A stretch of DNA of 64,000 nt from the IMG/VR virus record IMGVR_UViG_3300025530_000412; one strand, given 5' to 3'. Below are positions 7,806-64,000 of the stretch, piece after piece (positions within the stretch are counted from its first letter, which is position 1; each line of letters begins with the position of its first letter). The notes beneath the pieces are model-generated. The model was not told the origin of the DNA, did no database searches, and saw only the letters and a list, made by a program, of their open reading frames with translations. The DNA is from an uncultured virus (IMG/VR IMGVR_UViG_3300025530_000412) (Duplodnaviria > Heunggongvirae > Uroviricota > Caudoviricetes). Position numbers and translations under genes: made by a program.

Positions 7806-8924
7806 TTACACCTCCTTATATTCCAATACTGGTCTAAAGCCGACTAAATTAGTGTTAATATTATATGTTTCCCACGAAATTTGAAAATCATTATTTCTAC
7901 CTCTTATTATTCTTTTATCCGATGTGTTAGCTACATTCTCTCCCGCCTTCATTCCTAGCATTGCTGTTTCCTGACACCAAGTATAAACTCCACCGGAAAT
8001 ATGATGAAAAACATCATCTAAAGTTTTTCCATATTGAATTAAGTTTCTTGGAAAGTTTGCGATATATTTATCCCATTCATTGTTAGCAGGCCATCCTCCA
8101 TATCCTTGATCAGTAGTTGAACTATTTCCAAATCTATCAGAGTATGTAACTCCTCCTGAAAGAGATCTGATAATATTTATTTCTTTCATCATTTTTATTC
8201 TATTTATAATAACATATGGCCCCCCGTGATTTTCTAAAACTCTAATTCTGTATGATAAATAGCTAACATCATTATCTATTGAGAACCCCCTTACTTCGTT
8301 TACACTCCAAGCTGGTTGATTATTTTTTACATCTAAAATCTCCCAAGATATGTTATCATGTGAACCCTCAAATATCCAACTTTTAGGCGATGATGATATA
8401 TCAGCAGAGTTAAATGTTGCTTTTATTGTGTATTTTTTTATAACAATTGGATTTTCAAATTGGTAAGAAATCCAACCAGTTTTAACTCCATTAGCAGTAT
8501 TCCACGGATAAGGGGTGCTAGAATCATTACCACAAAATGCATTCCAAGCATCATAAGAGCTATTATAAATACTACTAGCACTAGCTACTCCACTTGGAGT
8601 AGTATTACTTGTCATTGGAGGAATCGCACTTACATCCCAAGGACACCCTTCTATATATTTTGCTCCATTTAATACATTCCATGAAATACTATGTTGTACA
8701 ACTCGGTCAGCAACTAGCAATCCTTTATTAACCTTTATAAAATAAAAACTGCCATTTGGTGTTTCCGAACCATTTATAGGTATTTCTGTATCAATTTCTC
8801 CACCTAAATTACTGAACGCTCCGCCTGTTCCACTATTGGCTTGATAATTGCATACTATATAATCACCAATTTCCATATCTTGAATTGTTGTACGTAAAAC
8901 CCCCGTTGTCGCTGGTACAGGCAT
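7806..8924 (-). CDS. Tail protein with a discoidin/F5-8 type C domain inside a CLec-like scaffold
   Basis: MTSNTTPSGVASASS...AWNAF...PKSWIFEGS...YRIRV; ends GFRPVLEY; likely ATG at 8924. Confidence 0.7.
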   Translation of the reverse strand: MPVPATTGVLRTTIQDMEIGDYIVCNYQANSGTGGAFSNLGGEIDTEIPINGSETPNGSFYFIKVNKGLLVADRVVQHSISWNVLNGAKYIEGCPWDVSAIPPMTSNTTPSGVASASSIYNSSYDAWNAFCGNDSSTPYPWNTANGVKTGWISYQFENPIVIKKYTIKATFNSADISSSPKSWIFEGSHDNISWEILDVKNNQPAWSVNEVRGFSIDNDVSYLSYRIRVLENHGGPYVIINRIKMMKEINIIRSLSGGVTYSDRFGNSSTTDQGYGGWPANNEWDKYIANFPRNLIQYGKTLDDVFHHISGGVYTWCQETAMLGMKAGENVANTSDKRIIRGRNNDFQISWETYNINTNLVGFRPVLEYKEV

Positions 8925-41802: not shown

Positions 41803-42861
41803 TTGCAATCACTAACAATCAAAATAAGATTTTTTCCAACTAATCCAATTATATTGAAACAATTATCTCAAGAATATATTAAAATTGTAAATCAATTAAC
41901 AAAACAAGCAGTTGATAATGATTCATTTCCGAAAATCACGACAAAAAATATCCAAACATCACTCCCATCTGCTATTTGTAATCAAGCAATTAGAGATGCA
42001 AAAAGTGTTTTTAATAAATATAGAAAAACTAAAAAGTTATCTGTACTTAAAAAACCTGTGTATTATATTAATAATCAAAACTATACAATTTTAGATAATG
42101 CGATTGCTTTTCCTATTTCTATTAACGGTAAAACAAAGAAAACGTATTTTAAAGCCATTCCAACAGAGAAAGATATGAAATTAATTAAAAAATCTAAACT
42201 TGGTCTTATGCGTATTGTTGAAAAATCAGGCAAATGGTATGCTCAAGTTTCAATTCAGATTCCAGAACAAGAAGATGTTAATAGTGAAAATATAATGGGT
42301 GTTGATCTTGGATTAAAAGTTCCTGCTGTATGTGTAACATCAACAGGTAAAACTAGATTTTTTGGTAACGGTAGACAAATAAAATATATTCGTCGCAAAT
42401 ACCAATCACGTAGAAAAAAATTAGGAAAACTTAAAAAGTTACATGCAATCAAGAAACTAGGAAACAAAGAAAGTCGATGGATGAAAGATCAAAATCATAA
42501 AATTAGTAGACAGATTATAAATTTTGCTATCAAAGAAAATGTATCAGCAATTAAACTCGAAATTTTGGCGAATATTCGCCAAACGACAAGAACAAGTCGT
42601 AAAAACGCAAAGAATCTGCATAATTGGTCGTTTTATCAGTTGCAAAAGTTTATTGAGTACAAAGCTAATTTAGCAGGAATTAAAGTTGTATATGTGAATC
42701 CAGCATATACTTCGCAAACTTGCCCTTGTTGTGGAACAAGGAATCGTGCAGATGATCGAAAATACGAATGTTCATGCGGATTCAAAACACATCGAGATCA
42801 GGTTGGAGCGATAAATATTATGCGTCAACCTGTGACAGATGGTAACAGTCTGTCAGCCTAA
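41803..42861 (+). CDS. tnpB: RNA-guided endonuclease TnpB
   Basis: RuvC-I GVDLG, RuvC-II KLE, Zn finger CPCCG...CSCG, RuvC-III HRD..GAINI. Confidence 0.93.
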   Translation: MQSLTIKIRFFPTNPIILKQLSQEYIKIVNQLTKQAVDNDSFPKITTKNIQTSLPSAICNQAIRDAKSVFNKYRKTKKLSVLKKPVYYINNQNYTILDNAIAFPISINGKTKKTYFKAIPTEKDMKLIKKSKLGLMRIVEKSGKWYAQVSIQIPEQEDVNSENIMGVDLGLKVPAVCVTSTGKTRFFGNGRQIKYIRRKYQSRRKKLGKLKKLHAIKKLGNKESRWMKDQNHKISRQIINFAIKENVSAIKLEILANIRQTTRTSRKNAKNLHNWSFYQLQKFIEYKANLAGIKVVYVNPAYTSQTCPCCGTRNRADDRKYECSCGFKTHRDQVGAINIMRQPVTDGNSLSA

Positions 42862-42989
42862 GAACCTATATGGTCTGTCTTAGGATGGGCTGATGACACA
42901 GCCCTTAACTTGGAGATTGCATGAAGCAGAAATGCATGAGTGCGTTAATCATCCAAGAATCCCCCGCCTTTAGGTGTGGGGAGTGTCAA
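42780..42989 (+). ncRNA. Predicted omegaRNA (reRNA) scaffold; 5' boundary approximate
   Basis: Region from the tnpB 3' end to the right-end TCAA, as established for TnpB elements. Confidence 0.6.
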
Positions 42990-43318
42990 AAATTTAAATG
43001 TTGCTTTAATACTTCCAAATTCTTTGCTTTAATTTGAATATCAGCAATCTCATTTTCAATATATGAAATAGTACTTGCATACGTATATAAATCAAATAAT
43101 ACTTCTTTTGCTTCTTTTAATGTTTTACATTTTCTTAATTGCTTAGCATACTGTTCAATTACATTGTCTACATTAATCTCCAATTTAGGGATCATTATTA
43201 AATCGATATCTTCGGGTTCATCGATCAAATAAACGTCACCAAATTCATCATCTTCAAAATCATTAATTTGTTCTTCATTCAATTTATCCACCTCCAAACG
43301 GAAGCAGAGGATTCGCAT
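42986..43318 (-). CDS. Acidic hypothetical protein (true start probably near 43282)
   Basis: RBS GGAGGTGG before TTG; stop codon supplied by the IS right end. Confidence 0.6.
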   Translation of the reverse strand: MRILCFRLEVDKLNEEQINDFEDDEFGDVYLIDEPEDIDLIMIPKLEINVDNVIEQYAKQLRKCKTLKEAKEVLFDLYTYASTISYIENEIADIQIKAKNLEVLKQHLNF

Positions 43319-45970: not shown

Positions 45971-47575
45971 TTATCTACAATTTTTACAAAAACTATGTAA
46001 TCCATCCTTATTCCTTTTGTCTGGACTAAAATATTTTGTTGTTGCTAATCTATTTTGTTTACATTTTGCACATGTCTTATAAGTTCCCTTAACCTTATAG
46101 GTAAAGATCCAATCTTCTCGATCTTGTAAATATGTACTAGCTATCATTTTAGGAATAGTATCATTATAAATTTTTGATAATCTATCTTCGGTTAATTTTA
46201 CACCGTATTTTTTATATATCTTCTCAATAATATCTTTGGCTTCATATCCGTCAATCTTCATAATCAAAATATCTTTAATGTAATCATCAAATAAAGTTTT
46301 TTCAATTAACTCATCTAATACAAATAAGATTGCCCACATGTCATGATCAGGTTGATAATATACACTTTGCTTAAGTTGACTGTAGTAATTAATCAATTCT
46401 AAAATATGTTTCTCTTTAGCAAAATCAATTCTGTTTTCTGATACTAATACATAGTCACCATATACAATTTGCCCATCAACGTATTTATCTGAAAAATATC
46501 CTGTATCTTCATCAAAATTAAAAACTGTTGATTCCTTTGTTAATCTTTTAAAATGAATAATACCAGCTAATTTTTCTTTCATTATCACTATTTCAGATGA
46601 CAAGTCCTTAAATAATTTCTTTAACATATATAACTGTTTTTCGCCGTATTTAGTTACAATTGCTTTTTCACATTCTTTTTTAATGTTGCTGTTCTTACCA
46701 TGACCTAATACTTTTCTTAAGTATTGTAATACATCATATACTTCTTTGATTTCAGGATATTTTACCAAATCTTCGCTAGTTATTTTTATTTTTTTGTTGA
46801 TTGTGAATATTTTAGGTATCTTTTCAACTTCTTCCTTGCTACCAAGTAAAATTTCTTTCTTACTCCCCAAATTCATGTTCTTCTTTGTTTTTTTAAGTTT
46901 TACAGTACTTCCCCATTCAACACTTTTCTTTTTTTGTGTTTGATTTTTATATTTAGGAAATACCAAATAATCAACAATAGTACTTAAACCAAGTAAAGAA
47001 GTATCATTTTCTGTCAAGAAATCAGATTTTGATTTAATTTGTTTTTTTGCAAATAATGGTGAACTAATATAATTTATTAACCATTCTATCTTTTCATTGG
47101 TTAACACCTTATTTAAATGTTCAACTCGATCTTCTGCAAATTCTAAATTATAATCTAATTGTTTGATAATAGAATATAAAAATTGTTGGATGCTTCCGTC
47201 AACATGCCACTTTTTCTGTTTTGACCACTCATCTCTTTTTTGTTGCCACGGTCTTTTTATTTCCTCTAGGTTATAACCATAATCGATTTCATTACTTCTA
47301 AACTGATTAATCCAATAATTTTTTCTTTCATTCAATTTATCAGGATCGTCAAGTGTTTCAAGAATAATAAATTCAAATGAATCTTGCTTGTATTTATTCC
47401 AAGCATCCTGCAATCTCTTATTTTTATGCTCTCCCTTGTTTAATTTTTTGATCAATGGTGCCTTGTATGTATTAATATTTTTTGTTGAATTAATAAACAT
47501 TTTATTTGTATGTTTGTTTGTAATGCAATAAATTCCTAGTTGAGAATCATTCATCATTGTCCCTTGTATCACCAC
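45971..47575 (-). CDS. Protein with a GIY-YIG-like N-terminus, C-terminal HTH-like segment and Zn finger
   Basis: GIYCITN...MFINS, HKNKRLQDAWNKY...F.FIILE, GYNL; CAKC...FCKNC. Confidence 0.6.
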   Translation of the reverse strand: MVIQGTMMNDSQLGIYCITNKHTNKMFINSTKNINTYKAPLIKKLNKGEHKNKRLQDAWNKYKQDSFEFIILETLDDPDKLNERKNYWINQFRSNEIDYGYNLEEIKRPWQQKRDEWSKQKKWHVDGSIQQFLYSIIKQLDYNLEFAEDRVEHLNKVLTNEKIEWLINYISSPLFAKKQIKSKSDFLTENDTSLLGLSTIVDYLVFPKYKNQTQKKKSVEWGSTVKLKKTKKNMNLGSKKEILLGSKEEVEKIPKIFTINKKIKITSEDLVKYPEIKEVYDVLQYLRKVLGHGKNSNIKKECEKAIVTKYGEKQLYMLKKLFKDLSSEIVIMKEKLAGIIHFKRLTKESTVFNFDEDTGYFSDKYVDGQIVYGDYVLVSENRIDFAKEKHILELINYYSQLKQSVYYQPDHDMWAILFVLDELIEKTLFDDYIKDILIMKIDGYEAKDIIEKIYKKYGVKLTEDRLSKIYNDTIPKMIASTYLQDREDWIFTYKVKGTYKTCAKCKQNRLATTKYFSPDKRNKDGLHSFCKNCR

Positions 47576-52309: not shown

Positions 52310-53083
52310 TTGGGAAGAGGAAATTCCATTTTAATTTTAAGGGAGGATAATATGAACAATAATATACTTATTCCAGTAGTAGCTTTTTTGGATGATGAAC
52401 AATATAAATTAGATTCAAATGAATTATATTTATATTCATTGTTGTATAGATATAAAATAATTTATGATAATATTACTTTAATTAATATTGATACAATATC
52501 ACAATTAATGAAAAATAAATTTTATGTAATGAAACCTAATGGAGACGACACTAGAAATAAAAATAGAATAAAAAATATATTAATAAATCTTAAAGAAAAA
52601 AATTATATTAATTTTAATAATGACAAAATAAAATATACTACAGTTCTAATTATTAAATTTAATTATGAAAATAGAGCTTGTTATGATATACCATATAATG
52701 TGTTTGATAAAATTGAATTTCCAAAAGAATTATTAAATTATATAATACAAAAATATAATTTATTACATTTAAAGAAAAGAAAAATAAGAAATTATGAAAG
52801 TGGATATGAAAAATGGAAAACAACCGTGTTAGAAAATGATAATTATACCTGTAAAATATGCAATATTACAAACCAATTTGATGATAGTATTATTCTTCAT
52901 GCTCACCATAAAGATGGCTATGACTGGTGTATAGAAAGAAGAACTGATCCCACTAACGGTGTAACCTTATGCGATGGTTGTCATACTGAATTTCATATTT
53001 TATATGGTTATGGTGGTAATACAGAACAGCAATATATTGAATTCTATGAAAACAAAAAGAAGAATTCTCGATTAAACGCCTGA
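52310..53083 (+). CDS. wHTH paralogue fused to an HNH endonuclease domain
   Basis: N-terminus paralogous to the previous gene; DNYTCKIC, LHAHH, NGVTLCDGCH..FH. Confidence 0.75.
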   Translation: MGRGNSILILREDNMNNNILIPVVAFLDDEQYKLDSNELYLYSLLYRYKIIYDNITLINIDTISQLMKNKFYVMKPNGDDTRNKNRIKNILINLKEKNYINFNNDKIKYTTVLIIKFNYENRACYDIPYNVFDKIEFPKELLNYIIQKYNLLHLKKRKIRNYESGYEKWKTTVLENDNYTCKICNITNQFDDSIILHAHHKDGYDWCIERRTDPTNGVTLCDGCHTEFHILYGYGGNTEQQYIEFYENKKKNSRLNA

Positions 53084-53098
53084 TGTTAGGCGTTTTTT
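53074..53098 (+). terminator. Intrinsic terminator
   Basis: AACGCCTG-atgt-TAGGCGTT followed by a T run. Confidence 0.75.
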
Positions 53099-53881
53099 TA
53101 TTTGTAGAGGGATTATAAAATTGTGATCGATGGTAGGATTTTGTGTTATCGCAAAAAAGATTTTTTGCAGAATGAAATAAGCAATAATTGTTGATATTAA
53201 AAGAAAATTTGGAGTAGCGAGCATGTTATATAATTGTGGATATAGTGGATAAATCGTATATTTGTTGATGTGACAAGGTTTTTGAAATATTATAGTGGTG
53301 ATATGGGGAGTTTTAGGGTGATTTGGTGGAGATGAAATTTGTTGATATAATGGGATTTTTACGATGTGTGATACGATTATTTTTTGGGAAAAATGTGGTA
53401 GAAAATGGTAAATATGAGTAATCGTGGATTGAAATTTTAGGGTGTGGGGATGGAAGTGCTAGGGGCACATTTTGGTAAAAAATGGTAAAAATGAATGTAA
53501 ACTATCCCCCCTCATAGCTGAATACTGCCTATATATGTATAAGTATATTGGGTGAAGTGAGTAGCAGTAAGTATATAGTGACTGTATAGAAATAGTATGA
53601 AGGATTGGAAAGAAATGTAAATATCATTTATAAATGGCAAAAGCATTCCGAATGTGAAAATGGGAATATATGGCAAAATCGTATATGTAACATGGCGCGT
53701 GAGTCGCAAGACATATCCACTCCACAAAAACACATGTCTACCCATCATAAACATATGTCCACCATACATAAACATATATATACCACCAACAGACAAACAT
53801 AATAAATAAATTCTATCACACACCAACAAACTAATAAAAAACATTTTAAAAATAAAATATAATAGTACATAAAAAAACCTA

Positions 53882-53910
53882 TTGCATTATTTTCGATTTC
53901 ATGCTATATT
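53882..53910 (+). promoter_or_regulatory. Early-region sigmaA promoter with extended -10
   Basis: TTGCAT-17-TATATT with TG at -15/-14 and A-rich UP-like upstream sequence. Confidence 0.7.
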
Positions 53911-53916
53911 TGAATC

Positions 53917-54425
53917 AAACAATAAAAGGAATTGAACAACAGCAACGACGACAATCACTTTCCCTCCCTGCTCGGACTGCTTATACCGTATCAAGCGATA
54001 CGGACGGCAACGAATCCGATCAAAGGGGAAGACATTGAAAACGTCTAGCACGCTGAATCAATTCCCTACATAGTTACTTGGCAGGATGCGAACGCAAGAT
54101 AGCTTGCACTAGCATCCGGGGAAGTCGCTGAACAGCGCAAGCTGAACGGCGCAAGGGCTGATCTTTGAAAATAAAATATTATTTACACGCGAGTTATTCG
54201 CGTGCGTGGAAACGGCGATCCACGTTACAACAGCTTGTCAAAATGTGGACAGGCTGTCCGTACACGAAACAGCGTGGCAGCACTTCGTGGAACCTGGGGA
54301 GTCCACGGAGGCGACTGTATGAGCGAGATATACCGTCAAAAAAGCCCCTAGTCAGCTATCTGACTTGAAAGGGTACGCTTATTTCGTATCATATAGGCAC
54401 GGTAGGAGTCCGGCACAACCCCCAC
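53917..54425 (+). ncRNA. Candidate large structured non-coding RNA / leader (family not recognised)
   Basis: GC-rich island with no credible ORF; many hairpins (CCGTATC/GATACGG, GGATGC/GCATCC, CACGCGAG/TTCGCGTG, ACAGCTTGTC/GACAGGCTGT, CTTCGTGGA/TCCACGGAG). Confidence 0.6.
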
Positions 54426-54470
54426 ATTATTCCGCTTTTTCTGTCCCCTTGCAAGAAGGGAGAAATAATA

Positions 54471-54617
54471 ATGAAAACAATTATTTTAAAAGATATGGAT
54501 AAATTAGAACATGATAAAAATGTAGGTTTTTATGACAAAGAACTTGATATGTTTTTTGACACTTTAGAACAATGGTTATTATTTAAACATGGCAAAACGT
54601 GGAGTGAAGTTATTTAA
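54471..54617 (+). CDS. 48-aa hypothetical protein enclosed by a 27-bp inverted repeat (absent from the ORF track)
   Basis: RBS AAGGGAG; MKTIILKDMDKLEHDKNVGFYDKELDMFFDTLEQWLLFKHGKTWSEVI*. Confidence 0.6.
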   Translation: MKTIILKDMDKLEHDKNVGFYDKELDMFFDTLEQWLLFKHGKTWSEVI

Positions 54618-54684
54618 GAAGAATAAAAATAATAATGCAAGGGGATAGAAAAAGCGGAATAAAAATAAAAAAGGAGGCACAAAA

Positions 54685-54933
54685 ATGATTATTTATCAAA
54701 ATGATTATATTACAATCAAGAAAAAAAATGTTTTTGGAAAGATTGGTTTAAGTGGTTATAACTCAAAAAATAATGCAACAATAACAGCATTTGCAAAGAA
54801 TGAAGCAGAAATAAATGAAAAAATAAAATATATAATTAACGAACTAAAAAAAGATAACAGTGTTATAAATTTAACTGAAAAACTAACAAAAATCGAAAAT
54901 AATTTTCTAAAAACAGTTTTTAACCATGAATAG
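54685..54933 (+). CDS. Hypothetical early protein
   Basis: RBS AAGGAGG. Confidence 0.65.
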   Translation: MIIYQNDYITIKKKNVFGKIGLSGYNSKNNATITAFAKNEAEINEKIKYIINELKKDNSVINLTEKLTKIENNFLKTVFNHE

Positions 54934-55043
54934 ATTTTATTTAATTGTCCAACATTGCAAATGGCGCATAACAGCCACGTTGTGCGCCTTATGGAGTGTT
55001 GGACGCTCCAAAAAAATAAAATATTACATAGGAGGAACAAACA

Positions 55044-55340
55044 ATGCAAGTAAAATTCATGTACAACGGCATAAAGGTTGACGGCAAACTGTATCGCGCC
55101 TATTACTGGCCGTGTACTTCCCGAAACATGCCGGAAGGAACGATCATCATTCGCGCGAAGGATTACGAGAGTTTCCCGAAAATTCCGGGTCTACGTACAA
55201 TAAACAACACGGACACGATGACGGATTATTTCGAAAAGGATCGAATTTACGTTGAGCCGAATAACCAATGGTATCCGCAAGTTCTTTCGGCGTATAAAAA
55301 ACTGCAAGAGCGGCGCGAACGTCGAAGGAACCCCGCCTGA
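55044..55340 (+). CDS. Hypothetical early protein; stop codon lies in the hammerhead core
   Basis: RBS AGGAGG; ends CCC GCC TGA. Confidence 0.7.
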   Translation: MQVKFMYNGIKVDGKLYRAYYWPCTSRNMPEGTIIIRAKDYESFPKIPGLRTINNTDTMTDYFEKDRIYVEPNNQWYPQVLSAYKKLQERRERRRNPA

Positions 55341-55394
55341 CGATGGCCCGGTGGCTCCGGGTCGAAACGCCCATAAGGGCGTCGCGGGAAGCCG
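55332..55394 (+). ncRNA. Type I hammerhead ribozyme 1
   Basis: Stem I CCCGC/GCGGG; CUGACGA; stem II GGCCCGG/CCGGGUC; GAAAC; stem III GCCC/GGGC; GUC cleavage after 55383; loop II UGGCU pairs with 3' AGCCG. Confidence 0.9.
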
Positions 55395-55421
55395 CAAAAT
55401 CAAATGAGGGAGTGAACAAAA

Positions 55422-55619
55422 ATGGCAAAACGTTACTTCGATGGTGAGTATGTCGGTCTTAACAACGTGACTTACAGCGGATACTACACCGTTGAAGGTA
55501 ACGTAGTAGTCAGGTTTACGACAGACGACGGCGAAACTTTTGATCCCGTCGGCGCAACACTCGAAGACGTGTTGACCTTCACGGAGTTACCGGAAGAACG
55601 AAGAAGAAATACCGTCTGA
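55422..55619 (+). CDS. Hypothetical early protein
   Basis: RBS GAGGGAG directly after ribozyme 1. Confidence 0.65.
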   Translation: MAKRYFDGEYVGLNNVTYSGYYTVEGNVVVRFTTDDGETFDPVGATLEDVLTFTELPEERRRNTV

Positions 55620-55644
55620 TTTGTACATATTAAGGAGTGATAAC

Positions 55645-55980
55645 ATGACTATGACTAAAAAAATCATCATCAATGTTCGTCCTATCATTTCAAATCTTCT
55701 CGCCGATTGGGACGGAGAAGGAAAACAAAGTCAATATATCAGACGTAACAAAAAGCTGATACTTGAATTTGTTGAAAATCTAGTCAATGACATTTCGGTC
55801 CCTTATGATTTACAATATATCAATAGTTACAAATTAGACATTGAAAATAGGGAAGTGATAATAACATACACTTGGATAGAACAAGACAATATTTATGACT
55901 GGTGCGAAGGAATGAAACTTAATTTGCAAGTCATTTCTGATCATATATGGCAAAAAGGCTTGACATGCATAGTAAAATGA
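55645..55980 (+). CDS. Hypothetical protein, paralogue copy 1 (MTMTKKIIINVRP family)
   Basis: RBS AAGGAGTG; near-identical to 56824..57156. Confidence 0.7.
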   Translation: MTMTKKIIINVRPIISNLLADWDGEGKQSQYIRRNKKLILEFVENLVNDISVPYDLQYINSYKLDIENREVIITYTWIEQDNIYDWCEGMKLNLQVISDHIWQKGLTCIVK

Positions 55981-56003
55981 AAATATATGGGAGGAACAAA
56001 CAA

Positions 56004-56249
56004 ATGTGGATGCAAATTAACGAAAATATTGATACCGGAATTGTTTCTGTCACATTATACGACGGATACGGCAACATTCTTGAACAAAAAGAGAATATGA
56101 CGGAAGACGTTGCTGAAAGTTATGTCCTTATGCTCAATGACAATTATTGTTTTTCGCAAAACATGAGAGTAGAAAACAACATTTACAAAAATGGAGAACT
56201 TTTTCGCACATTTCATCATTTTTTTAGTGACTTTATTGCAAGTTTTTGA
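56004..56249 (+). CDS. Hypothetical early protein
   Basis: RBS GGGAGG before ATG 56004. Confidence 0.6.
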   Translation: MWMQINENIDTGIVSVTLYDGYGNILEQKENMTEDVAESYVLMLNDNYCFSQNMRVENNIYKNGELFRTFHHFFSDFIASF

Positions 56250-56307
56250 ATGTTTATCTTGAACATAAGTTATCAGTTTTTCCGTTTACGAATTGGAGGG
56301 ATTGACC

Positions 56308-56481
56308 ATGTATAACAGAATTGGACCACAAGCCGAATACAAATTCCGTTGTGCTAAACATCAAGTATACACTCGCTGCGGGAAGATGATCGAAGTCATG
56401 GCGGACGGAAAAAAGGAAGCAAGAAAGATTGTCGAGTCACACGGATATGCAGTTGCTTTTGTAACACGCATTCCCGCCTGA
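56308..56481 (+). CDS. Hypothetical early protein; stop codon lies in the hammerhead core
   Basis: RBS GGAGGG before ATG 56308; ends CCC GCC TGA. Confidence 0.6.
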   Translation: MYNRIGPQAEYKFRCAKHQVYTRCGKMIEVMADGKKEARKIVESHGYAVAFVTRIPA

Positions 56482-56552
56482 CGAGCGCGAAGGCGCCTTT
56501 GGGCCCGCTGGCTACGGGCCGAAACCGGGCTTGTCCCGGTCGCGGGAAGCCG
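56471..56552 (+). ncRNA. Type I hammerhead ribozyme 2, with an extra hairpin before stem II
   Basis: Stem I UUCCCGC/GCGGGAA; CUGACGA; 17-nt insert; stem II GGCCCG/CGGGCC; GAAAC; stem III CGGG/CCCG; GUC cleavage after 56541; same UGGCU/AGCCG pseudoknot. Confidence 0.82.
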
Positions 56553-56577
56553 CAAAACTATGAAAGGGTGATTAGAT

Positions 56578-56802
56578 ATGGAAAAGCATCTGGTTTATTA
56601 CGGTTCTGGAGAAAGCCGGGAAAATCCCGGCGTTGGCGTCGATTTCATGAAGGCCGACGTGGATGGAATCGAGTTGTATGCCGAGATGCCGCCGGTGGAA
56701 GGTGATGAAACCGGGACGTATGACGCGTTGAAAGCTGAAATCCTTGCCCAAGCGCAGGCGCACGGGATCGACGTTTCTTGCCTAGTATTTTGGAATGATT
56801 GA
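56578..56802 (+). CDS. Acidic hypothetical early protein
   Basis: RBS AAGGGTG after ribozyme 2. Confidence 0.65.
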   Translation: MEKHLVYYGSGESRENPGVGVDFMKADVDGIELYAEMPPVEGDETGTYDALKAEILAQAQAHGIDVSCLVFWND

Positions 56803-56823
56803 GCATGATTAAGGAGTGATAAC

Positions 56824-57156
56824 ATGACTATGACTAAAAAAATCATCATCAATGTTCGTCCCATTATTTCTAGATTGCTCGACGATTGGGACGGAGAAGG
56901 AACGCAAAAACAATATATTAAACGTAACAAAAAATTGATATTTGAATATGTCGAAAATCTAATCAATGATGTTTCATCTCCTGACTTGCACTATATAAAA
57001 AATTACAAACTGGATATCGAGAATAGAGAAGTAGTTATCATATTCACATGGACGGAACAAGATAATATTTATGACTGGATGGAAGGAATGAAACACAATT
57101 TACAAGCTATTTCTAACCATATATGGCAAAAAGGTTTGACGTGTGTAACAGTTTAA
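56824..57156 (+). CDS. Hypothetical protein, paralogue copy 2
   Basis: Duplicate of 55645..55980 including the upstream TTAAGGAGTGATAAC. Confidence 0.7.
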   Translation: MTMTKKIIINVRPIISRLLDDWDGEGTQKQYIKRNKKLIFEYVENLINDVSSPDLHYIKNYKLDIENREVVIIFTWTEQDNIYDWMEGMKHNLQAISNHIWQKGLTCVTV

Positions 57157-57157
57157 C

Positions 57158-57231
57158 AGTCGTTCCGGCGACTCTAAACAGCGCATTAAGCCGGAAGCGT
57201 TAGACCGCATATAACAGCGGTCTAGGTTGCG
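57158..57231 (+). ncRNA. Pistol self-cleaving ribozyme
   Basis: P1 AGUCG/CGACU; loop UUCCGG pairs with CCGGAA; CUAAACAG; P2 CGCA/UGCG; UUAAG; GCG; P3 UAGACCGC/GCGGUCUA; G-U cleavage at 57226/57227. Confidence 0.9.
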
Positions 57232-57254
57232 AATAACAGAACGGGGGGAATAAC

Positions 57255-57560
57255 ATGGCAATAAGACTTAATCAAGAACAATTATTTACGGTCTGTCGGA
57301 TACTATCCAAGGATTTACATAATATTTACATAACAGAACACGCCGAACAACGCATGGAACAACGTAAAATATCATATGATGATATAATAAATGCGCTGTC
57401 GAATCCTATTGAATTATTAGACATTCGTTTAACAGAAAAGAGATATTACGCATATAAAATTCATGGGAGTGATAAAAACAAACATATTGTTTTTGTAATT
57501 GACGAAAAAACACGGACAATACATGTTGTTACAGTCATAAATAAACTATATAATCATTAA
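57255..57560 (+). CDS. DUF4258-like (RelE/BrnT-fold) putative RNase toxin
   Basis: ITEHAEQRMEQRKISYDDI..AL, HIVF...VVTV. Confidence 0.7.
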   Translation: MAIRLNQEQLFTVCRILSKDLHNIYITEHAEQRMEQRKISYDDIINALSNPIELLDIRLTEKRYYAYKIHGSDKNKHIVFVIDEKTRTIHVVTVINKLYNH

Positions 57561-57583
57561 TAACAATAAAAAAGGGTGATAAC

Positions 57584-57769
57584 ATGACTACAGATATTAA
57601 CAATTTGTTGTGCGTTGAGTGCGGAAATAGAGGATTCATACAAATAACAGTTAACAAAAACAATAACAACATTCCTGCGCTTCAATGTAAACATTGCATG
57701 TCTGTACTATACGGACATGAAGCAATGCAAATTATAACAGCGCAAAATGAACAATCAGCAACCAAATAA
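57584..57769 (+). CDS. YgiT/YokU-type zinc-finger protein (putative antitoxin partner)
   Basis: CVECG...NIPALQCKHC. Confidence 0.65.
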   Translation: MTTDINNLLCVECGNRGFIQITVNKNNNNIPALQCKHCMSVLYGHEAMQIITAQNEQSATK

Positions 57770-57840
57770 CAAGTATTCCATCTTATTGCCTGTTTTTTAT
57801 TTTAAATAATATCAAATATTATATTTGGAGGCGATATAAA

Positions 57841-58089
57841 ATGATTCTTTATAAAACTATTATTGACATTGAAAACTATCCTGCGGAAGTGGTTTTTGAA
57901 CGTTGTATAAATTCACCAGAGCATGGATTGACGAATGCTGAAGTGATGGTTATTTATGATAATATGGGAATTGACATTATTTCCTATGATCCCAATTTTA
58001 ACTATGAAGAATATCTTAACAGCAAACAATTTGAAGACAAAGTATATGATTCTGCAATTGATCGTTACGAACGACAAATGAATTTATAA
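57841..58089 (+). CDS. Acidic hypothetical protein
   Basis: RBS GGAGG. Confidence 0.6.
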   Translation: MILYKTIIDIENYPAEVVFERCINSPEHGLTNAEVMVIYDNMGIDIISYDPNFNYEEYLNSKQFEDKVYDSAIDRYERQMNL

Positions 58090-58226
58090 CAATCCAAGCA
58101 GAGCCGATCCGCTTAATTTTCATATCCAGTTAAAAGCAGGATTTTATTCCTGCTATGGACTTGTAAACATTTGCTTTATGAGTCGATAGCAGGAATAAAA
58201 TAATATAAATTAAGGAGTGAAATAAC

Positions 58227-58583
58227 ATGACAAAAAACGGTTTATATTTCAAACTTAAAGACGATAAGCATGTTTTTGGGAATGTCTATTCAGATAATAT
58301 CAAAATAACAGAAAAATGCATCTTTTTTAATGTGGCAGGAGAAACAAAAAGAATTTATAAAGATGATTGTATTTTTTGGGCAATAGTCCCAAATATAACA
58401 TTAGCTGAACATGAAAAGTTAAAGAAAAAACATGAAGCATTATTATCAGAAAATGGATTATTACTCGAAAATGGGAAAATTTTACAATATATCAACGGTC
58501 AATTTATTATTGACAATGAAGAATTTATTATAGGAGAAGAGGCATATTGTATTATTACTGGAAGGGAATTAATCTATTCATAA
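58227..58583 (+). CDS. Hypothetical protein
   Basis: RBS AAGGAGTG. Confidence 0.65.
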   Translation: MTKNGLYFKLKDDKHVFGNVYSDNIKITEKCIFFNVAGETKRIYKDDCIFWAIVPNITLAEHEKLKKKHEALLSENGLLLENGKILQYINGQFIIDNEEFIIGEEAYCIITGRELIYS

Positions 58584-58610
58584 AAAAGAGAAAATAAAAT
58601 TATAACAGGA

Positions 58611-58856
58611 GTGATAAAAATGATAATCAAATTGCATGAAAGATATAAATGTAAATCAAAACTAATCGAAAAAGTTATCAATAACAAGGGCTGGAAAATC
58701 AAAATTGTAGACGATCAAGTAGTAAGCAATAATATTGATCAAGATTTTATCGATTATTTTTGTGGATGGGAACAAACATATTCACCAACTACAACATGGA
58801 AACGATTGAAACCAAATGTAAAACCATTCTATGTAATAGGAGTGATGATCCAATGA
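58611..58856 (+). CDS. Hypothetical protein
   Basis: RBS GGAGTG. Confidence 0.55.
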   Translation: MIKMIIKLHERYKCKSKLIEKVINNKGWKIKIVDDQVVSNNIDQDFIDYFCGWEQTYSPTTTWKRLKPNVKPFYVIGVMIQ

Positions 58857-59070
58857 CTGACCAACAATTGAAAAAAACATCATCAACTTCATGAAACGTG
58901 CAAATAAACCTGTCACCATTGATGAAATCATTGATAACAGCGGTTTAACAAAAGATTTTTGGCTGATTAAAAGTATATTGAACCAATTGAAATTGTTTGG
59001 AGTGATTGAAGAATATAAAGAAGGATTAGAAAAAAGAAAATATGTCTTGTCGAGTCAACATAAAATATAA
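58853..59070 (+). pseudogene. Small wHTH-like gene frameshifted at an A7 run
   Basis: MTDQQLKK then IINFMKRANKPVTIDEII...L.QL...GVI in another frame; one extra A at 58871-58877 restores the frame. Confidence 0.45.
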
Positions 59071-59255
59071 TATAATCTATTCAAATAAGACGAAAGGAGG
59101 ATTGAAAATGAAAATGAAAATTCTGCATTTTCTTTTCCGTCTTGTCTTTCCTCAAAGTCGTTTTAAACCTATTCATAACATGACATACGATGAATTACTG
59201 GAATTTATTGAACATGCTTGATTAAAATAAAATAATAATAAAGGGGAAATGAAAA

Positions 59256-60443
59256 ATGAGTGTAACAGCAGCAGAAAAACAATATGTGTTGAATCAGGAA
59301 ACCGGAAAAATCGAATTACATTTCAATAAATCCGAATACCAAGCATTAACAGCAGACCAAAAAGCAAACCTGAAACGTTTCTTCTTGTGGTCGCCTCAAC
59401 GCCAAGCATGGGTTTCACGTTCAAAGAATAGTCATTACATGGCAATTCGAACGGCTGAACAGTTTGGTTTTACAAACGGCGGAAAAGTGGGTGAAAAGCT
59501 TACATATGCGGAAGAATTGCAACGGAAAGTAGATCGAGCAGAAAGACGTGCCGAACGTTATGAAAAATATGCAGAAAATGCAGAAAAACGTGCTGAAATG
59601 TTGCAAGCAGAAATGAATGAGTATTTGCGAAATCATGATATTGCTTTTTTCACACAACCGATCATTGCAGGACATGCTGCATCGGAAGCTTTTGCTAGAC
59701 AAAGACAACGCATATACGACAGATATCATAAAGGTTTTGAAGAATATCGAAAAAGTGAATACTTCAAGCAAAAGGCCATAACAGCCCATCAAACCGCAAG
59801 CATGACACAATTACAAGACCGTTCATATCTTAATAACAGAATTCAAGAATGTGAAGCGAATATAAGAAAGTATGAACGGTTGATTGTAACAGCAGAAGAA
59901 AAAAATAATCAAGAATGGTTACAATCTTTATTAGATAAAATGGAATATGAAGTGGATAAGTTGGCATTTTTTCAAAATAAATTAGACGCGATTGGTAAAA
60001 TATATACAAAAAATGATATTAAATCAGGTTATTTAGTTAAAATTCAAAATGATTGGGCGGAAGTTATAAAAGCAAATTCAAAAACAATTGAAGTAAAATT
60101 TCCATGGAATAATTGGACATTGAAATATAATTATGCAGAAATTCAAGAAGTCAAAATTCCTGAAGACTGGAAGGAGGAGAAAAAAGAAATCAAAAATCCG
60201 TTTAACATTGGTGACATCCTTGTAAGGAAAAATATTGCTGGTACTGCTGTTATTTCAGCTTATCAAGTTGTGAAAGTGACAGAAAAAAGCGTAACAATCC
60301 AAAAAATTGCTATTGAAGAAGGAAAACCAATCAGGGATAAATTTGTAACAGACAAGCAAGAAAGACGACAAGTAAAACAAGACAGAAGCGGAAATTTTGT
60401 TGTGAATGACGGCGACTGGTATTTGTACCAATATACTGCTTAA
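59256..60443 (+). CDS. DUF3560-like protein
   Basis: RAERRAERY...AE, FFTQPIIAGH.AS, YLNNRI.ECEA..RK. Confidence 0.7.
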   Translation: MSVTAAEKQYVLNQETGKIELHFNKSEYQALTADQKANLKRFFLWSPQRQAWVSRSKNSHYMAIRTAEQFGFTNGGKVGEKLTYAEELQRKVDRAERRAERYEKYAENAEKRAEMLQAEMNEYLRNHDIAFFTQPIIAGHAASEAFARQRQRIYDRYHKGFEEYRKSEYFKQKAITAHQTASMTQLQDRSYLNNRIQECEANIRKYERLIVTAEEKNNQEWLQSLLDKMEYEVDKLAFFQNKLDAIGKIYTKNDIKSGYLVKIQNDWAEVIKANSKTIEVKFPWNNWTLKYNYAEIQEVKIPEDWKEEKKEIKNPFNIGDILVRKNIAGTAVISAYQVVKVTEKSVTIQKIAIEEGKPIRDKFVTDKQERRQVKQDRSGNFVVNDGDWYLYQYTA

Positions 60444-60449
60444 TAACCA

Positions 60450-60485
60450 TAACAGGCACATAGTATAATTACTATGTGCCTGTTA
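60450..60485. terminator. 16-bp hairpin (terminator or processing stem)
   Basis: TAACAGGCACATAGTA-taat-TACTATGTGCCTGTTA. Confidence 0.6.
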
Positions 60486-60688
60486 AAATCTACATTTTAA
60501 CAGAAGGGAGCAAATAAAGATGTTTGAATTAATAGAATTAAAGACTGGTCGTGTAATTGAACGTCACAATTATTCTTTTCAAGAATTTATTGAAAATAAA
60601 TATTCTAGGTTTTGCTCATTACAAACTGAAAATGGTTTAATAATTGGTGATGTTCGTCCTGATTTAGTATGGCGCGAAGTTAAATAAA

Positions 60689-60997
60689 ATGAAAAAATTG
60701 TATCGCCTTTCAAGAAGTGAAGACAAATTGGAATGGATCGAATGTACTGGAACCGAAGTAAAAGTAGAAGGATACATATTATACTATGTAAAAAACGTAA
60801 AATTCTATGGTTATTATTCTAATTGTTTAATCGAGCCAAGGACAGGCATTTCTGTTGCACAAGGTAAAACCAAAAATCTTTGCACTGAAGACTTTAAAAG
60901 AAATTTGCAAAAAATTGGTCATGACGATTTTGAAAAACAAATAACAGAATGTATCAAGAAATATGGGGAATCACCATTGTATAACAAGACAGTTTAA
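60689..60997 (+). CDS. Hypothetical protein
   Basis: ORF in the early operon; EPRTG.SV motif. Confidence 0.6.
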   Translation: MKKLYRLSRSEDKLEWIECTGTEVKVEGYILYYVKNVKFYGYYSNCLIEPRTGISVAQGKTKNLCTEDFKRNLQKIGHDDFEKQITECIKKYGESPLYNKTV

Positions 60998-61048
60998 ATA
61001 ACAAAAATTAAAAAACTAAAATAATAATATTAAAAGGAGTGTTATAAA

Positions 61049-61633
61049 ATGATTCAGATTTCAACTTCTCCATGGGGATATATTCATCATTGCAAAACTG
61101 TTGTCGATGGTGTTTATATTGTTGAAACTGCTAGTCATGGCGGAATTATGATCCATAAAGATATTGCAGAACAATTGCTTTCAAAATATGCAAGAGCAAA
61201 AGGATCAAGATTCCAAGATTATTATTGCTATGAAGAGGATTGCGACTATGCTATTCCAGTTTTCGAAATGAAACATTTTTGGCAAAAATTCTTTAGAAAT
61301 AAAGATAACAGCGAAATCGAAAATATTCTCATGAAGTCGTTAAGTCTTTGGAACGCTGATTATTTGATTGCTATTGGTGTAACTCCACTTGAAAAACAAT
61401 ACAAACAATATCTTGCCAACAAAAAAGAAGAAGAAATGAGAAGAAATAAAGACGAAAATTTAATTATAGCAGCGTGGGGTGACTGGCACACGAAAAGAAA
61501 GGGAATCAATCTAGTGTTAACAGCCGACGGAAAATATCACTATGTAACTGAAAAAAGTTACAAACCTTTTGACGGATTGTATCTTTTGAGTAATTGTGAA
61601 ATTGTTGAAAGTGACGTTCCTTATTCTGCATAA
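61049..61633 (+). CDS. DUF7007-like hypothetical protein
   Basis: SPWG.I, V.TASHGG, YEEDCD.AI. Confidence 0.65.
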   Translation: MIQISTSPWGYIHHCKTVVDGVYIVETASHGGIMIHKDIAEQLLSKYARAKGSRFQDYYCYEEDCDYAIPVFEMKHFWQKFFRNKDNSEIENILMKSLSLWNADYLIAIGVTPLEKQYKQYLANKKEEEMRRNKDENLIIAAWGDWHTKRKGINLVLTADGKYHYVTEKSYKPFDGLYLLSNCEIVESDVPYSA

Positions 61634-61827
61634 AATATAGGGGATTATTCGAAATGGATAGTCCCCCAAAGATTCTCAAAGGGGTGATATATAATGCGCT
61701 TTATTTACGGCAAGAAAATCAATAACAAAATTTTTGTTCGCACGAAAAAAGGGAACTGGATTGAATTTGCTTTACTTTTTGTAGAATAAAAAGTAAAATA
61801 TATATAAAAAAACGGAGGTTATATCAA

Positions 61828-62159
61828 ATGAAATAAACAATTGCTCATGTTAAGTACGAAAATCATGTAAAAGAATCGCTACTTTCAGGAAAACCAGTTA
61901 ATTATGATTTAAAAGACTTTATTCCTCAAAAATAACAGCAAGAAAACAACAAGACAGTGTACAAAATATGAAAAAATAGTCTATGATATATTCAAAAAAG
62001 CAAAAGAAATTTTTCCTAAAATGCATGATGGTATGTTCATAAGACATGGTTATATTGCTGAAGAAATGGCTTATTTAATGAGTCAATGTAATATTATCGA
62101 AGAAGCAAGAGAGTTATATAATACATGGAAACATATTACATATAACACACCATGTCATA
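61828..62159 (+). pseudogene. Degraded small gene
   Basis: Good RBS (GGAGG) followed by ATG AAA TAA and further in-frame stops. Confidence 0.35.
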
Positions 62160-62201
62160 AATATTAAAAAGTCGATAAAACAAGTCTTTTAATAAGAAAG
62201 G

Positions 62202-62432
62202 GTGGAAAATATGAAACAATATACAATTGATTTTGTGTATTTGGATAATTATGAAATAACGGCATATAATAATGGTAAAATGGAATATTCTGATATTGTT
62301 CGATCATATGAACTAGATGGTTATGTATCTGCTTTGGAAACGCAAGGTTATAGGCGAGAGGTTATAGGCGAGCCTATGATGTTAAAAAATATAAAGAAGA
62401 ATTTAACGAAGCTAAAGAGAAATATGAAATAG
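62202..62432 (+). CDS. Hypothetical protein
   Basis: RBS AAGGGTGG. Confidence 0.5.
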   Translation: MENMKQYTIDFVYLDNYEITAYNNGKMEYSDIVRSYELDGYVSALETQGYRREVIGEPMMLKNIKKNLTKLKRNMK

Positions 62433-62474
62433 CAAAAAAGAAATACAAAACAGCGTTAAAAAATCCACTAATTA

Positions 62475-63107
62475 TTGTTAATCAATAAATTCAAACGTTT
62501 GGAGGATAAAGCAATGAAAAAACATGTTTTTATCAAAGTTTTTGAAAGAATTGTTGAACTTCTTAAAAACGAACAAGATAAAATTGATATTAATAATACA
62601 AATGATCTTGATATAGTAGATGAATATTTTTTATTCGATGATTTGATTTCAAAGTTTTCATTGAAAATTGATACGTTGCAAGGTAAAAGTTTTGCGAACT
62701 TTGATTTTTTTCCCGACTGGAAGGAAGAAAATAAGGAAATGAAACAAAATAAATTTTTCCATTACATTAATTTGATTGGAACAGAATTCATCGATGTTGG
62801 TGACGTTGCAAAAATGATGGGATGGGATACCTATCAAGTTTATGACAGATTGGAGGAATTGCCGATACCAGTCCATAATGGATTAAAAAAATTGTGGGCA
62901 AAACATGATTTTGAACATAAAGAGCAAAGAGCAACACTAAGTCAAGTTTTGACAGTTGCGGAAGCGGCAAAAAAATATAATGTTTCAAACGATACTATTA
63001 TTAAACTGTGTCAAGCAAAAAAGATCGCCGCAAGACAGACAGAAGATGGCGAATGGCTTATTGGGCGCGAAGGTTTGCATAATTATTTTAAAAGTATTAT
63101 TGAATAA
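62475..63107 (+). CDS. DNA-binding protein with a C-terminal excisionase/MerR-like HTH
   Basis: LTVAEAAKKYNVSNDTIIKLCQ..KI.A......WLI. Confidence 0.7.
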   Translation: MLINKFKRLEDKAMKKHVFIKVFERIVELLKNEQDKIDINNTNDLDIVDEYFLFDDLISKFSLKIDTLQGKSFANFDFFPDWKEENKEMKQNKFFHYINLIGTEFIDVGDVAKMMGWDTYQVYDRLEELPIPVHNGLKKLWAKHDFEHKEQRATLSQVLTVAEAAKKYNVSNDTIIKLCQAKKIAARQTEDGEWLIGREGLHNYFKSIIE

Positions 63108-63124
63108 AGAGGGGTGTAATAACA

Positions 63125-63850
63125 ATGACAGTTAAATTTAGACATCCTGATTACTTGTTTTTATTTGATATTGACAAAACGTTAGAACATTTAAAATCAC
63201 TTAAAGATAATATTCAAAAACCTTTCATTATGGATGCTGGCACACTGAATAATAATCTTTTTGACAATTCATATAACAGTTATGATGTTGGATATTATAT
63301 TCACAATTCTGTTTTAGAATTAATGCAATTTTTGACGAAAAAAAATAACATTTGGGAAATATGCGAAGTTGCTTTTAATGAAGACTACGAATGGGGAGAA
63401 AAAAGAAATAAAGATTTATTGTATAAATCATTTTACAAATATTCTCTTAAAGATGAATATGTTAAACCAGCAATCACAATTATTGACAAATGGATCGAAG
63501 AAACGGAAGATATATATAACAAAATGAAAGAAGAACAAGAGGAAGAAAAACAAAGACGTGAAATGTATAAGAACAAATATTCTATTATTGAAGTATATAA
63601 ACTTATTAAACCATCAGGCGGAGAAAATGGACAAGATGGCTATTATGATGGTTTAATTAGGAATAACAGTACTGGACAAACTGTTAGAATGGTCGCGCGA
63701 AATGTGTTTGACTTTGGATTTTATACTTATCCCAAACGACTTGAGGGGACAAACGATGTCTTTAATAGAGAGGTATGGACAGAAGAAGAAAGAAATGTAT
63801 CAAATTGGATTTGTGATTTTCCACCGTTTACAACAAGGACTCGTATGTAA
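63125..63850 (+). CDS. Hypothetical protein
   Basis: RBS GAGGGGTG; RNVFDFG motif. Confidence 0.65.
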   Translation: MTVKFRHPDYLFLFDIDKTLEHLKSLKDNIQKPFIMDAGTLNNNLFDNSYNSYDVGYYIHNSVLELMQFLTKKNNIWEICEVAFNEDYEWGEKRNKDLLYKSFYKYSLKDEYVKPAITIIDKWIEETEDIYNKMKEEQEEEKQRREMYKNKYSIIEVYKLIKPSGGENGQDGYYDGLIRNNSTGQTVRMVARNVFDFGFYTYPKRLEGTNDVFNREVWTEEERNVSNWICDFPPFTTRTRM

Positions 63851-64000
63851 TTAATAATTGGAGGGATATTTATTATGCGAAATTTAACAGAGTTGAAACA
63901 AAAAACGTTGGAATACTGTGAAAGAGTAAGGAAAAGCGGAGGTTTAACAGCAGAATACCAATTGGGACAAAAAACGTTACCAGATCATTGAGCCAAAAAA

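Follow-up and report, generated by a model that had tools for sequence, protein, structure and literature searches.

A highly structured leader RNA, possibly with the layout of a ribosomal RNA operon leader, in a putative Paenibacillus prophage

Introduction

Phages are known to place processing signals in the leaders of their operons. The lambda N leader contains an RNase III site, and the immunity RNAs of P4 (CI) and of P1 and P7 (c4) are short RNAs that are released by processing from the leader of their own operon and base-pair with known targets. Host factors also act on such leaders: the NusB:NusE complex binds the boxA of the lambda nut site (PMC2800207). In the ribosomal RNA (rrn) operons of B. 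subtilis, boxA (consensus AUGAUCUUUGAAA) is reported to lie just after a small 5' hairpin and to bind NusB (2026 mBio, PMC13753749), and the leader-trailer helix and antitermination complex of E. coli are treated in PMC10250234. A further kind of large RNA is represented by GOLLD and ROOL, which exceed 500 nt, contain many helices and are carried by prophages (PMC12286853, PMC5737381).

Here we analyse a GC-rich stretch within 64,000 nt of DNA from an uncultured virus (hereafter the window). On balance we regard this stretch, from ~53917 to ~54445, as an untranslated 5' leader of ~530 nt that heads a plus-strand operon of a Paenibacillus prophage. The leader RNA is made, is highly structured, belongs to the plus strand and is non-coding. 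We lean towards the reading that its architecture is that of a ribosomal RNA operon leader, with a small hairpin, a boxA, a structured RNA and a helix for double-strand processing.

Results

Genomic context and promoter of the leader

The window corresponds to the minus strand of a provirus record in IMG/VR. A partial cyclophilin gene at its left end (1-432, 54% GC) adjoins an integrase gene (720-1877), and the closest relatives of this cyclophilin are from Paenibacillus, that of P. cisolokensis being 90% identical. The left end of the window thus looks like host flank, with a phage of 31% GC residing in a host of roughly 50% GC. Elsewhere in the window we noted a TnpB-like gene (41803-42990, with OrfB_IS605 and Cas12f1-like TNB domains) and then a GC-rich patch (42821-42990) that may be a TnpB guide RNA. 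On the minus strand, a 534-aa protein (45971-47575) has an N-terminal GIY-YIG homing-endonuclease domain and matches the phage sigma-factor family phrog_5767 (E 2.7e-55).

Upstream of the leader, the preceding operon is closed by a terminator-like hairpin (53074-53095). An AT-rich, gene-free gap carries three direct repeats of ~20 nt (AAACA[C/T]AT[G/A]T[C/A]..ACC) at 53700-53800, 110-200 nt upstream of the promoter, and these may be operators or iterons. The promoter itself (53882-53910, plus strand), as read from the sequence, consists of TTGCAT (53882-53887), a 17-nt spacer and the extended -10 element TGcTATATT (53902-53910), from which transcription would start near 53917. The first-pass annotation had described a strong sigmaA promoter here. 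The site is present and its layout is shared with a sister phage, G001 (TTGCGT-17-TGtTATTAT), but its strength is less clear: the -35 box agrees with the consensus at only 3/6 positions, and a consensus promoter scan did not list the site 53882-53910.

The leader is transcribed

Contigs matching the leader with 0 mismatches are present in two metatranscriptome runs from two studies, at 53932-54437 (X3) and 53969-54414 (X4); being contigs, they carry no strand and their ends are only approximate. In X3 the unbroken leader makes up a whole contig of 506 nt, and in X4 the contig spans most of the leader. The next RNA contigs cover 54448-54645 (X3) and 54458-54645 (X4). RNA cover is absent in both runs over 53400-53931, no contig lying upstream of 53932, and over 54669-54950, and these gaps argue against DNA carry-over; it is also absent in both over 55374-55937. 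That contigs stop at the same place in two studies is a weak hint of true ends. The leader has the highest depth of the operon in both runs (70.7 and 118.4, compared with 49.8 and 75.3 for the piece carrying the first ORF), depth being one value per contig that cannot rank stability.

The plus strand is indicated by conserved G.U pairs that are valid only on that strand, four in the 3' domain of the leader and one in the long-range helix of each phage, as the first-pass annotation had argued from its G-U pairs.

Composition, coding content and fold

The leader is one of the few GC islands in the window, with a GC content of 0.48 over 53911-54470 compared with 0.27-0.35 in its flanks and ~0.30 in the surrounding DNA. 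All six reading frames are interrupted (10/5/5 stops on the plus strand, 8/7/6 on the minus strand), and the longest ORF, with a TTG start, is 67 aa. Seven translations of leader ORFs matched no family in Pfam and PHROGs (best E 0.043), and a test for a protein-coding gene found no open frame in the leader with a family match or a conserved frame. One-base indels separate the window leader from the G001 leader within the conserved part. A weak three-base periodicity of GC content is seen over the first 244 nt (0.57/0.37/0.54). The neighbouring GC islands at 55031-55650 and 56321-56840, unlike the leader, carry ORFs with ribosome-binding sites.

The minimum free energy (MFE) of the leader is -191.8 kcal/mol, whereas shuffles average -149.4 +/- 7.1 (z -5.97; 0/100 shuffles as good); on the minus strand the value is z -6.39. 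Two control islands, likewise GC-rich and of comparable length but coding, reach only z -1.90 (55044-55597) and z -0.77 (56300-56802), so that the fold signal of the leader is not a by-product of its GC content. The earlier description of a GC-rich, structured, non-coding leader is therefore borne out by composition, fold, stops in six frames and the lack of any protein family. Two observations that would have spoken against it, a missing transcript and a translated ORF, were not made: RNA contigs are present, and no conserved ORF was found.

Several modules can be recognized along the plus strand. In the MFE structure, module A (53928-54065) is closed by GGAAUUGA/UCAAUUCC and contains a weak boxA-like sequence, GACAUUGAAAAC, at 54031. 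It has no counterpart in G001, whose leader begins only ~30 nt before the next hairpin. This hairpin (54084-54126, defined by the G001 alignment) has the form GGAUGC...GCAUCC with an apical AUAG loop and is followed by GGGGAAGUC; in G001, 2 double changes maintain the pairing of its inner stem, and the CAUCCGGGGAA block has the same sequence. Behind the boxA lie an AT-rich linker and variable middle hairpins of the MFE structure (54172-54259), which align poorly to G001 or are deleted there, the middle hairpins being specific to the window phage.

A predicted boxA of the ribosomal RNA type

The sequence TGATCTTTGAAAA (54159-54171) occurs once in the 64 kb, on the plus strand, with 0.02 occurrences expected. 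It is identical at 13/13 positions to the boxA of all three P. amylolyticus rrn leaders read (L125, L127 and L129), each of which contains TTGATCTTTGAAAACTGAAC. In the rrn leaders of G002, the closest host relative, which start AAGTCGCC and pass through a small hairpin to TGTTCTTTGAAAAC (also written AAGUCGCC-hairpin-...UGUUCUUUGAAAAC), the boxA matches it at 12/13 positions, and it agrees with the B. subtilis consensus at 12/13 positions. Complete Paenibacillus genomes served as the source of rrn leaders, the 16S model having matched nothing in the draft genome G003.

A small hairpin is predicted just upstream of the boxA, which may correspond to the layout of host rrn leaders and to that described in PMC13753749. 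The whole module of AAGUCGC, small hairpin and boxA (54122-54171, plus strand), delimited by alignment to a Paenibacillus rrn leader, scores 26 over 55 columns against rrn leader L124, compared with 19.1 +/- 2.4 for shuffles, 5/300 of which score as high. Judged by its sequence, the motif at 54159 is a genuine rrn-type boxA. The first-pass annotation had pointed to two boxA-like motifs; this one stands, but the second, GACATTGAAAAC (54031-54042), matches the rrn boxA region at only 9/12 positions by manual count and was not recovered as a boxA in a scan at <=1 mismatch.

The G001 leader has no boxA, its aligned site reading CACATTGACAAC, and in the 13 kb of G001 scanned, boxA matches at <=2 mismatches occur only outside the leader and at chance level. 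Some 30 nt of the G001 leader (L011 about 7905-7935, minus strand) match Paenibacillus rnpB at 25/30 positions (GGAAAGTCC...GGCAGG.TGC), with a score of 35 compared with 18.4 +/- 2.1 for shuffles (maximum 28; z about 8). This rnpB-like piece occupies the place of the rrn-leader-like piece of the window phage, and both follow GGGGAA(A)GUC. The leader is thus a mosaic, with an rrn-leader-like piece in the window phage and a 30-nt rnpB match at the same place in G001.

The window leader itself has no significant likeness to Paenibacillus rnpB (score 23, shuffles 19.3 +/- 2.6). An RNase P RNA was rejected as a candidate: RF00010 and RF00011 match neither the window nor the G001 leader, and the archaeal RNase P model gave a trivial 8-bit match only.

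The 3' domain is conserved in a sister phage

Only one true homologue of the leader was found, in the sister phage G001, a viral contig of 73 kb. The two leaders have in common the AUAG-loop hairpin followed by CAUCCGGGGAA(A)GUC, the block GGCAGCACU and a 3' domain of ~165 nt (54260-54426, plus strand). Folded together with G001 by RNAalifold, this domain forms seven helices and includes a nested junction. All 96/96 cells of its 48 pairs are paired, with 14 double changes, 1 one-sided change and 0 broken pairs, in one pairwise comparison within a family of two members whose structure derives from the same two sequences. None of 500 shuffles (0/500) reaches these values, and controls slid by 1-3 columns show 0-2 double changes and 32-45% pairing. 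The covariation that the first-pass annotation had suggested looking for is therefore present, but in two sequences only.

The 3' domain combines a multi-helix junction with single-stranded blocks that are invariant. At its end, a block of 24 nt (54396-54419) is identical in G001 and includes an invariant hairpin (54397-54414) with the 7-nt loop UAGGAGU. This loop resembles a Shine-Dalgarno sequence and lies ~60 nt upstream of the start codon of the first ORF.

In a third relative, a compost DNA contig (X6), the match is confined to 54153-54423 (21 mismatches, 3 indels) and the surroundings differ: the contig has neither the downstream helix, the first ORF nor the upstream hairpin of the window phage. 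Given the limits of this match, the segment that runs from the boxA site to the end of the 3' domain behaves as a module. The 3' domain is the only part common to all three relatives seen and hence the common core of the leader family. We consider it a candidate new structured RNA.

A long-range helix encloses the first ORF

Directly behind the 3' domain, an inverted repeat of 27 nt (96% complementary) forms the two arms of a predicted 27-bp long-range helix on the plus strand, at 54427-54453 and 54636-54662. The helix encloses the first ORF of the operon (ORF48, 48 aa, 54471-54617, plus strand), whose protein is 81% identical to its G001 counterpart and matched no family in Pfam and PHROG. 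The helix dominates the MFE structure of 54395-54680 (z -6.55), and two concerted double changes preserve it in G001.

The RNA contigs break at both arms. On the left, the contigs end at 54437 and resume at 54448 in X3, and end at 54414 and resume at 54458 in X4; on the right, the contigs of both runs end at 54645. The two arms share no 31-mer, which makes an assembly-graph break at the helix unlikely. A double-strand-specific nuclease would leave contig breaks of this kind, and the helix may be cleaved in both arms. It seems that the leader is severed from the downstream genes and persists as RNA.

Ribozymes and duplicated cassettes further along the operon

A Pistol ribozyme (RF02679, 63.8 bits, E 2.7e-9) lies at 57158-57231, between an ORF of 110 aa and a DUF4258 gene, and two more are found on one strand of G001 (L011 5002-5073 and 2759-2831). 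Pistol ribozymes are associated with phages, and an example from Paenibacillus polymyxa cleaves (PMC4604425). The published cleavage junction is GU after P3 (Harris et al. 2015, PMC4604425), which the Rfam alignment places at 57226|57227 here. The RNA contigs of both runs end at 57196/57197, ~30 nt short of this junction, and for this reason we treat RNA contig ends as approximate.

Two hammerhead-like modules that Rfam does not call were seen in the window (55331-55399 and 56473-56557) and one in G001 (L011 6284-6367, minus strand). Their layout is CCCGC-CUGACGA-stem II-GAAAC-stem III-GUC-GCGGG, with the stop codon of the upstream ORF inside CUGA; in copy 2, a further hairpin is inserted between CUGACGA and stem II. 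All three copies give a three-helix topology, stem III having 3 compensatory pairs, and runs X3 and X5 contain variants in different contexts. In both metatranscriptome runs, the downstream RNA contigs begin at 56551. Contigs of both metatranscriptome runs also end at 55341, which is 42 nt short of the predicted hammerhead cut. This shared end may stem from the assembly graph, since related modules co-occur in the same samples.

A cassette is duplicated in tandem at 55629-55967 and 56808-57143 (87% and 79% identity) and encodes paralogous proteins of 111 and 110 aa, for which Pfam and PHROG searches returned no known family. Each copy lies downstream of a hammerhead-like module, with a small GC-rich ORF between them.

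Searches for known families and further homologues

The first-pass annotation could assign the leader to no known family, and the Rfam/Infernal search agrees. Over the whole window only the Pistol ribozyme matches, and the leader alone, at E <= 10, gives three noise matches (E 1 to 7.7). ROOL was rejected (RF03087 has no match in the leader at E <= 10); GOLLD, which we take to be an Rfam family, would have been covered by the all-family scans that gave nothing in the leader. An array of self-cleaving ribozymes was likewise rejected for the leader, no ribozyme family matching 53880-54680 at E <= 10. As a weak further hint, the X3 and X4 contigs are continuous in the leader but broken at the Pistol and hammerhead-like sites.

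Homologues proved equally scarce. The leader had no blastn match among phage and plasmid records. In the viral collection, no related locus was reached through the neighbouring proteins of 257 and 82 aa, and an alignment search with ORF48 found G001 only; eight relatives of the upstream 257-aa protein are recorded, 7 of them in Logan assemblies only. DNA patterns gave the same picture in that collection, with 0 loci for a 20-mer and 1 locus, G001, for a 21-mer. The pattern ATGAGCGA...GTCAAAAAAG occurred at 24 loci there, of which 1 is G001 and 23 have no other blastn similarity. A pattern from the hairpin block found 2 loci, G001 and L154, and the latter was rejected: by eye it shows nothing more and is apparently coding sequence.

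A metagenome scan with an 18-mer returned 15 loci, namely G001 and 14 others that share just 18-22 nt, on contigs of 47-75% GC with no Rfam family. No homologue was found in 401 Paenibacillaceae genomes, where the matches at E <= 0.01 (in 12 genomes) are all 21-44 nt long, scattered across the query and in unrelated contexts.

Discussion

We favour an rrn-like organization of the leader and propose the following sequence of events. The boxA would load NusB and S10 onto RNA polymerase. The polymerase so equipped would cross the untranslated RNA and the many short genes behind it without premature termination, chiefly of the Rho type. RNase III, which is specific for double strands, would then cut both arms of the long-range helix, and this cleavage would free the leader together with a clamped mini-mRNA for the 48-aa ORF. 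Two alternatives had been offered by the first-pass annotation, a large ncRNA and a cis-acting antiterminator; these are not exclusive, as the RNA has the appearance of an rrn-style leader that persists after its release.

Several observations speak against the rrn-like reading. The family has two members, the RNA evidence consists of contigs, and boxA is missing in G001. Moreover, no intrinsic terminator is predicted on the plus strand from 53500 to 64000, so that read-through of classical terminators would have no visible target. The proposal of a processive antiterminator keeps its rrn-type boxA but is qualified by these last two points.

A different reading, which we hold possible but clearly the lesser prospect, is that the released RNA of ~530 nt, or its 3' domain, acts in trans as an independent phage ncRNA of a new class, boxA and helix only serving its synthesis and release. 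The 3' domain is what all three relatives share, and in X6 the module stands alone as if it were an autonomous unit. The invariant 24-nt block, with its hairpin displaying UAGGAGU, would suit a trans-acting RNA as well, and the high contig depth of the leader in both runs points weakly the same way. Depth per contig, however, is no measure of stability, and the ORF48 piece is nearly as deep. Such an RNA would also be very rare, with 1 homologue in the viral and metagenome collections and 0 in the 401 Paenibacillaceae genomes, and it matches no known family. The likeness to GOLLD and ROOL drawn by the first-pass annotation thus survives insofar as the RNA is real, transcribed and structured, but not as a match to ROOL or any other Rfam family. 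More speculatively, and in our estimate rather unlikely, the leader may be a large phage ncRNA, of a new class, that mimics the stable-RNA genes of the host, with an rrn 5' hairpin and boxA in the window phage and the rnpB-like piece in G001. It would in this way borrow the host machinery for rRNA transcription and processing, and its 165-nt core, released by RNase III, would act on a host or phage target.

Less probable again is that the 3' domain acts in cis, either as a modifier of RNA polymerase or as a regulator that senses a ligand or a protein (put/EAR-like or riboswitch-like). Its multi-helix junction and invariant single-stranded blocks would fit such a role, as would its place at the head of a long operon in both phages and its retention in G001, which lacks boxA. 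Against this, there are no predicted terminators to be read through and no Rfam match, and the domain in X6 does not precede the same ORF, which argues against a switch dedicated to ORF48. That the leader has no function, being either GC-rich, host-like DNA that was captured or the remains of a gene, and folds by chance, is highly improbable: the GC content of the island equals that of the host flank, the leader is mosaic in both phages and its first 244 nt are weakly periodic, but its compensatory changes with no broken pair, its one-base indels between phages, its expression, the lack of an ORF or protein family and a fold signal that is absent from coding GC islands all argue otherwise.

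If the rrn-like reading is true, a phage of Gram-positive bacteria borrows the signals of ribosomal RNA operons, boxA and leader-trailer helix, for a long untranslated RNA and an operon of tiny genes. A non-exhaustive literature search, at the level of titles and the beginnings of abstracts, returned no description of a phage of Gram-positive bacteria that carries a boxA of the rrn type. The metatranscriptomes further hint that one phage transcript is cut in several places, namely in a duplex, in two hammerhead-like modules and in a Pistol ribozyme.

Among described systems, the P4 CI and P1/P7 c4 RNAs resemble the leader in the release by processing that we propose for it, and differ from it in length. 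With RNase P RNA there is a likeness in G001 only, where a hairpin is followed by the 25/30 match described above. The leader shares size, number of helices and a prophage location with GOLLD and ROOL; unlike these, it belongs to an mRNA and is not a gene in its own right, has only two members and matches no Rfam model. The lambda nut/N leader is closer: it too is a boxA-bearing leader of a phage operon, engages host Nus factors and is processed at a double-stranded site ahead of its first gene, as we propose for the window phage. In the window phage, however, we identified neither a boxB nor an N-like protein, and an rrn-type boxA of the host would need no phage factor; the host is Gram-positive and the leader is ~10x longer. 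Bacterial rrn leaders show the order of elements that we propose for the phage leader, namely promoter, small hairpin, boxA, structured untranslated RNA and a long-range helix round the first product, which in rrn operons is the leader-trailer helix cut by RNase III. They differ from the phage leader in that their helix encloses 16S rRNA instead of a 48-aa ORF, and in the position of boxA, which lies ~45-60 nt from the start in the host rrn leaders read and 242 nt from the inferred start in the phage. The phage-borne element has, in addition, a conserved domain of 165 nt.
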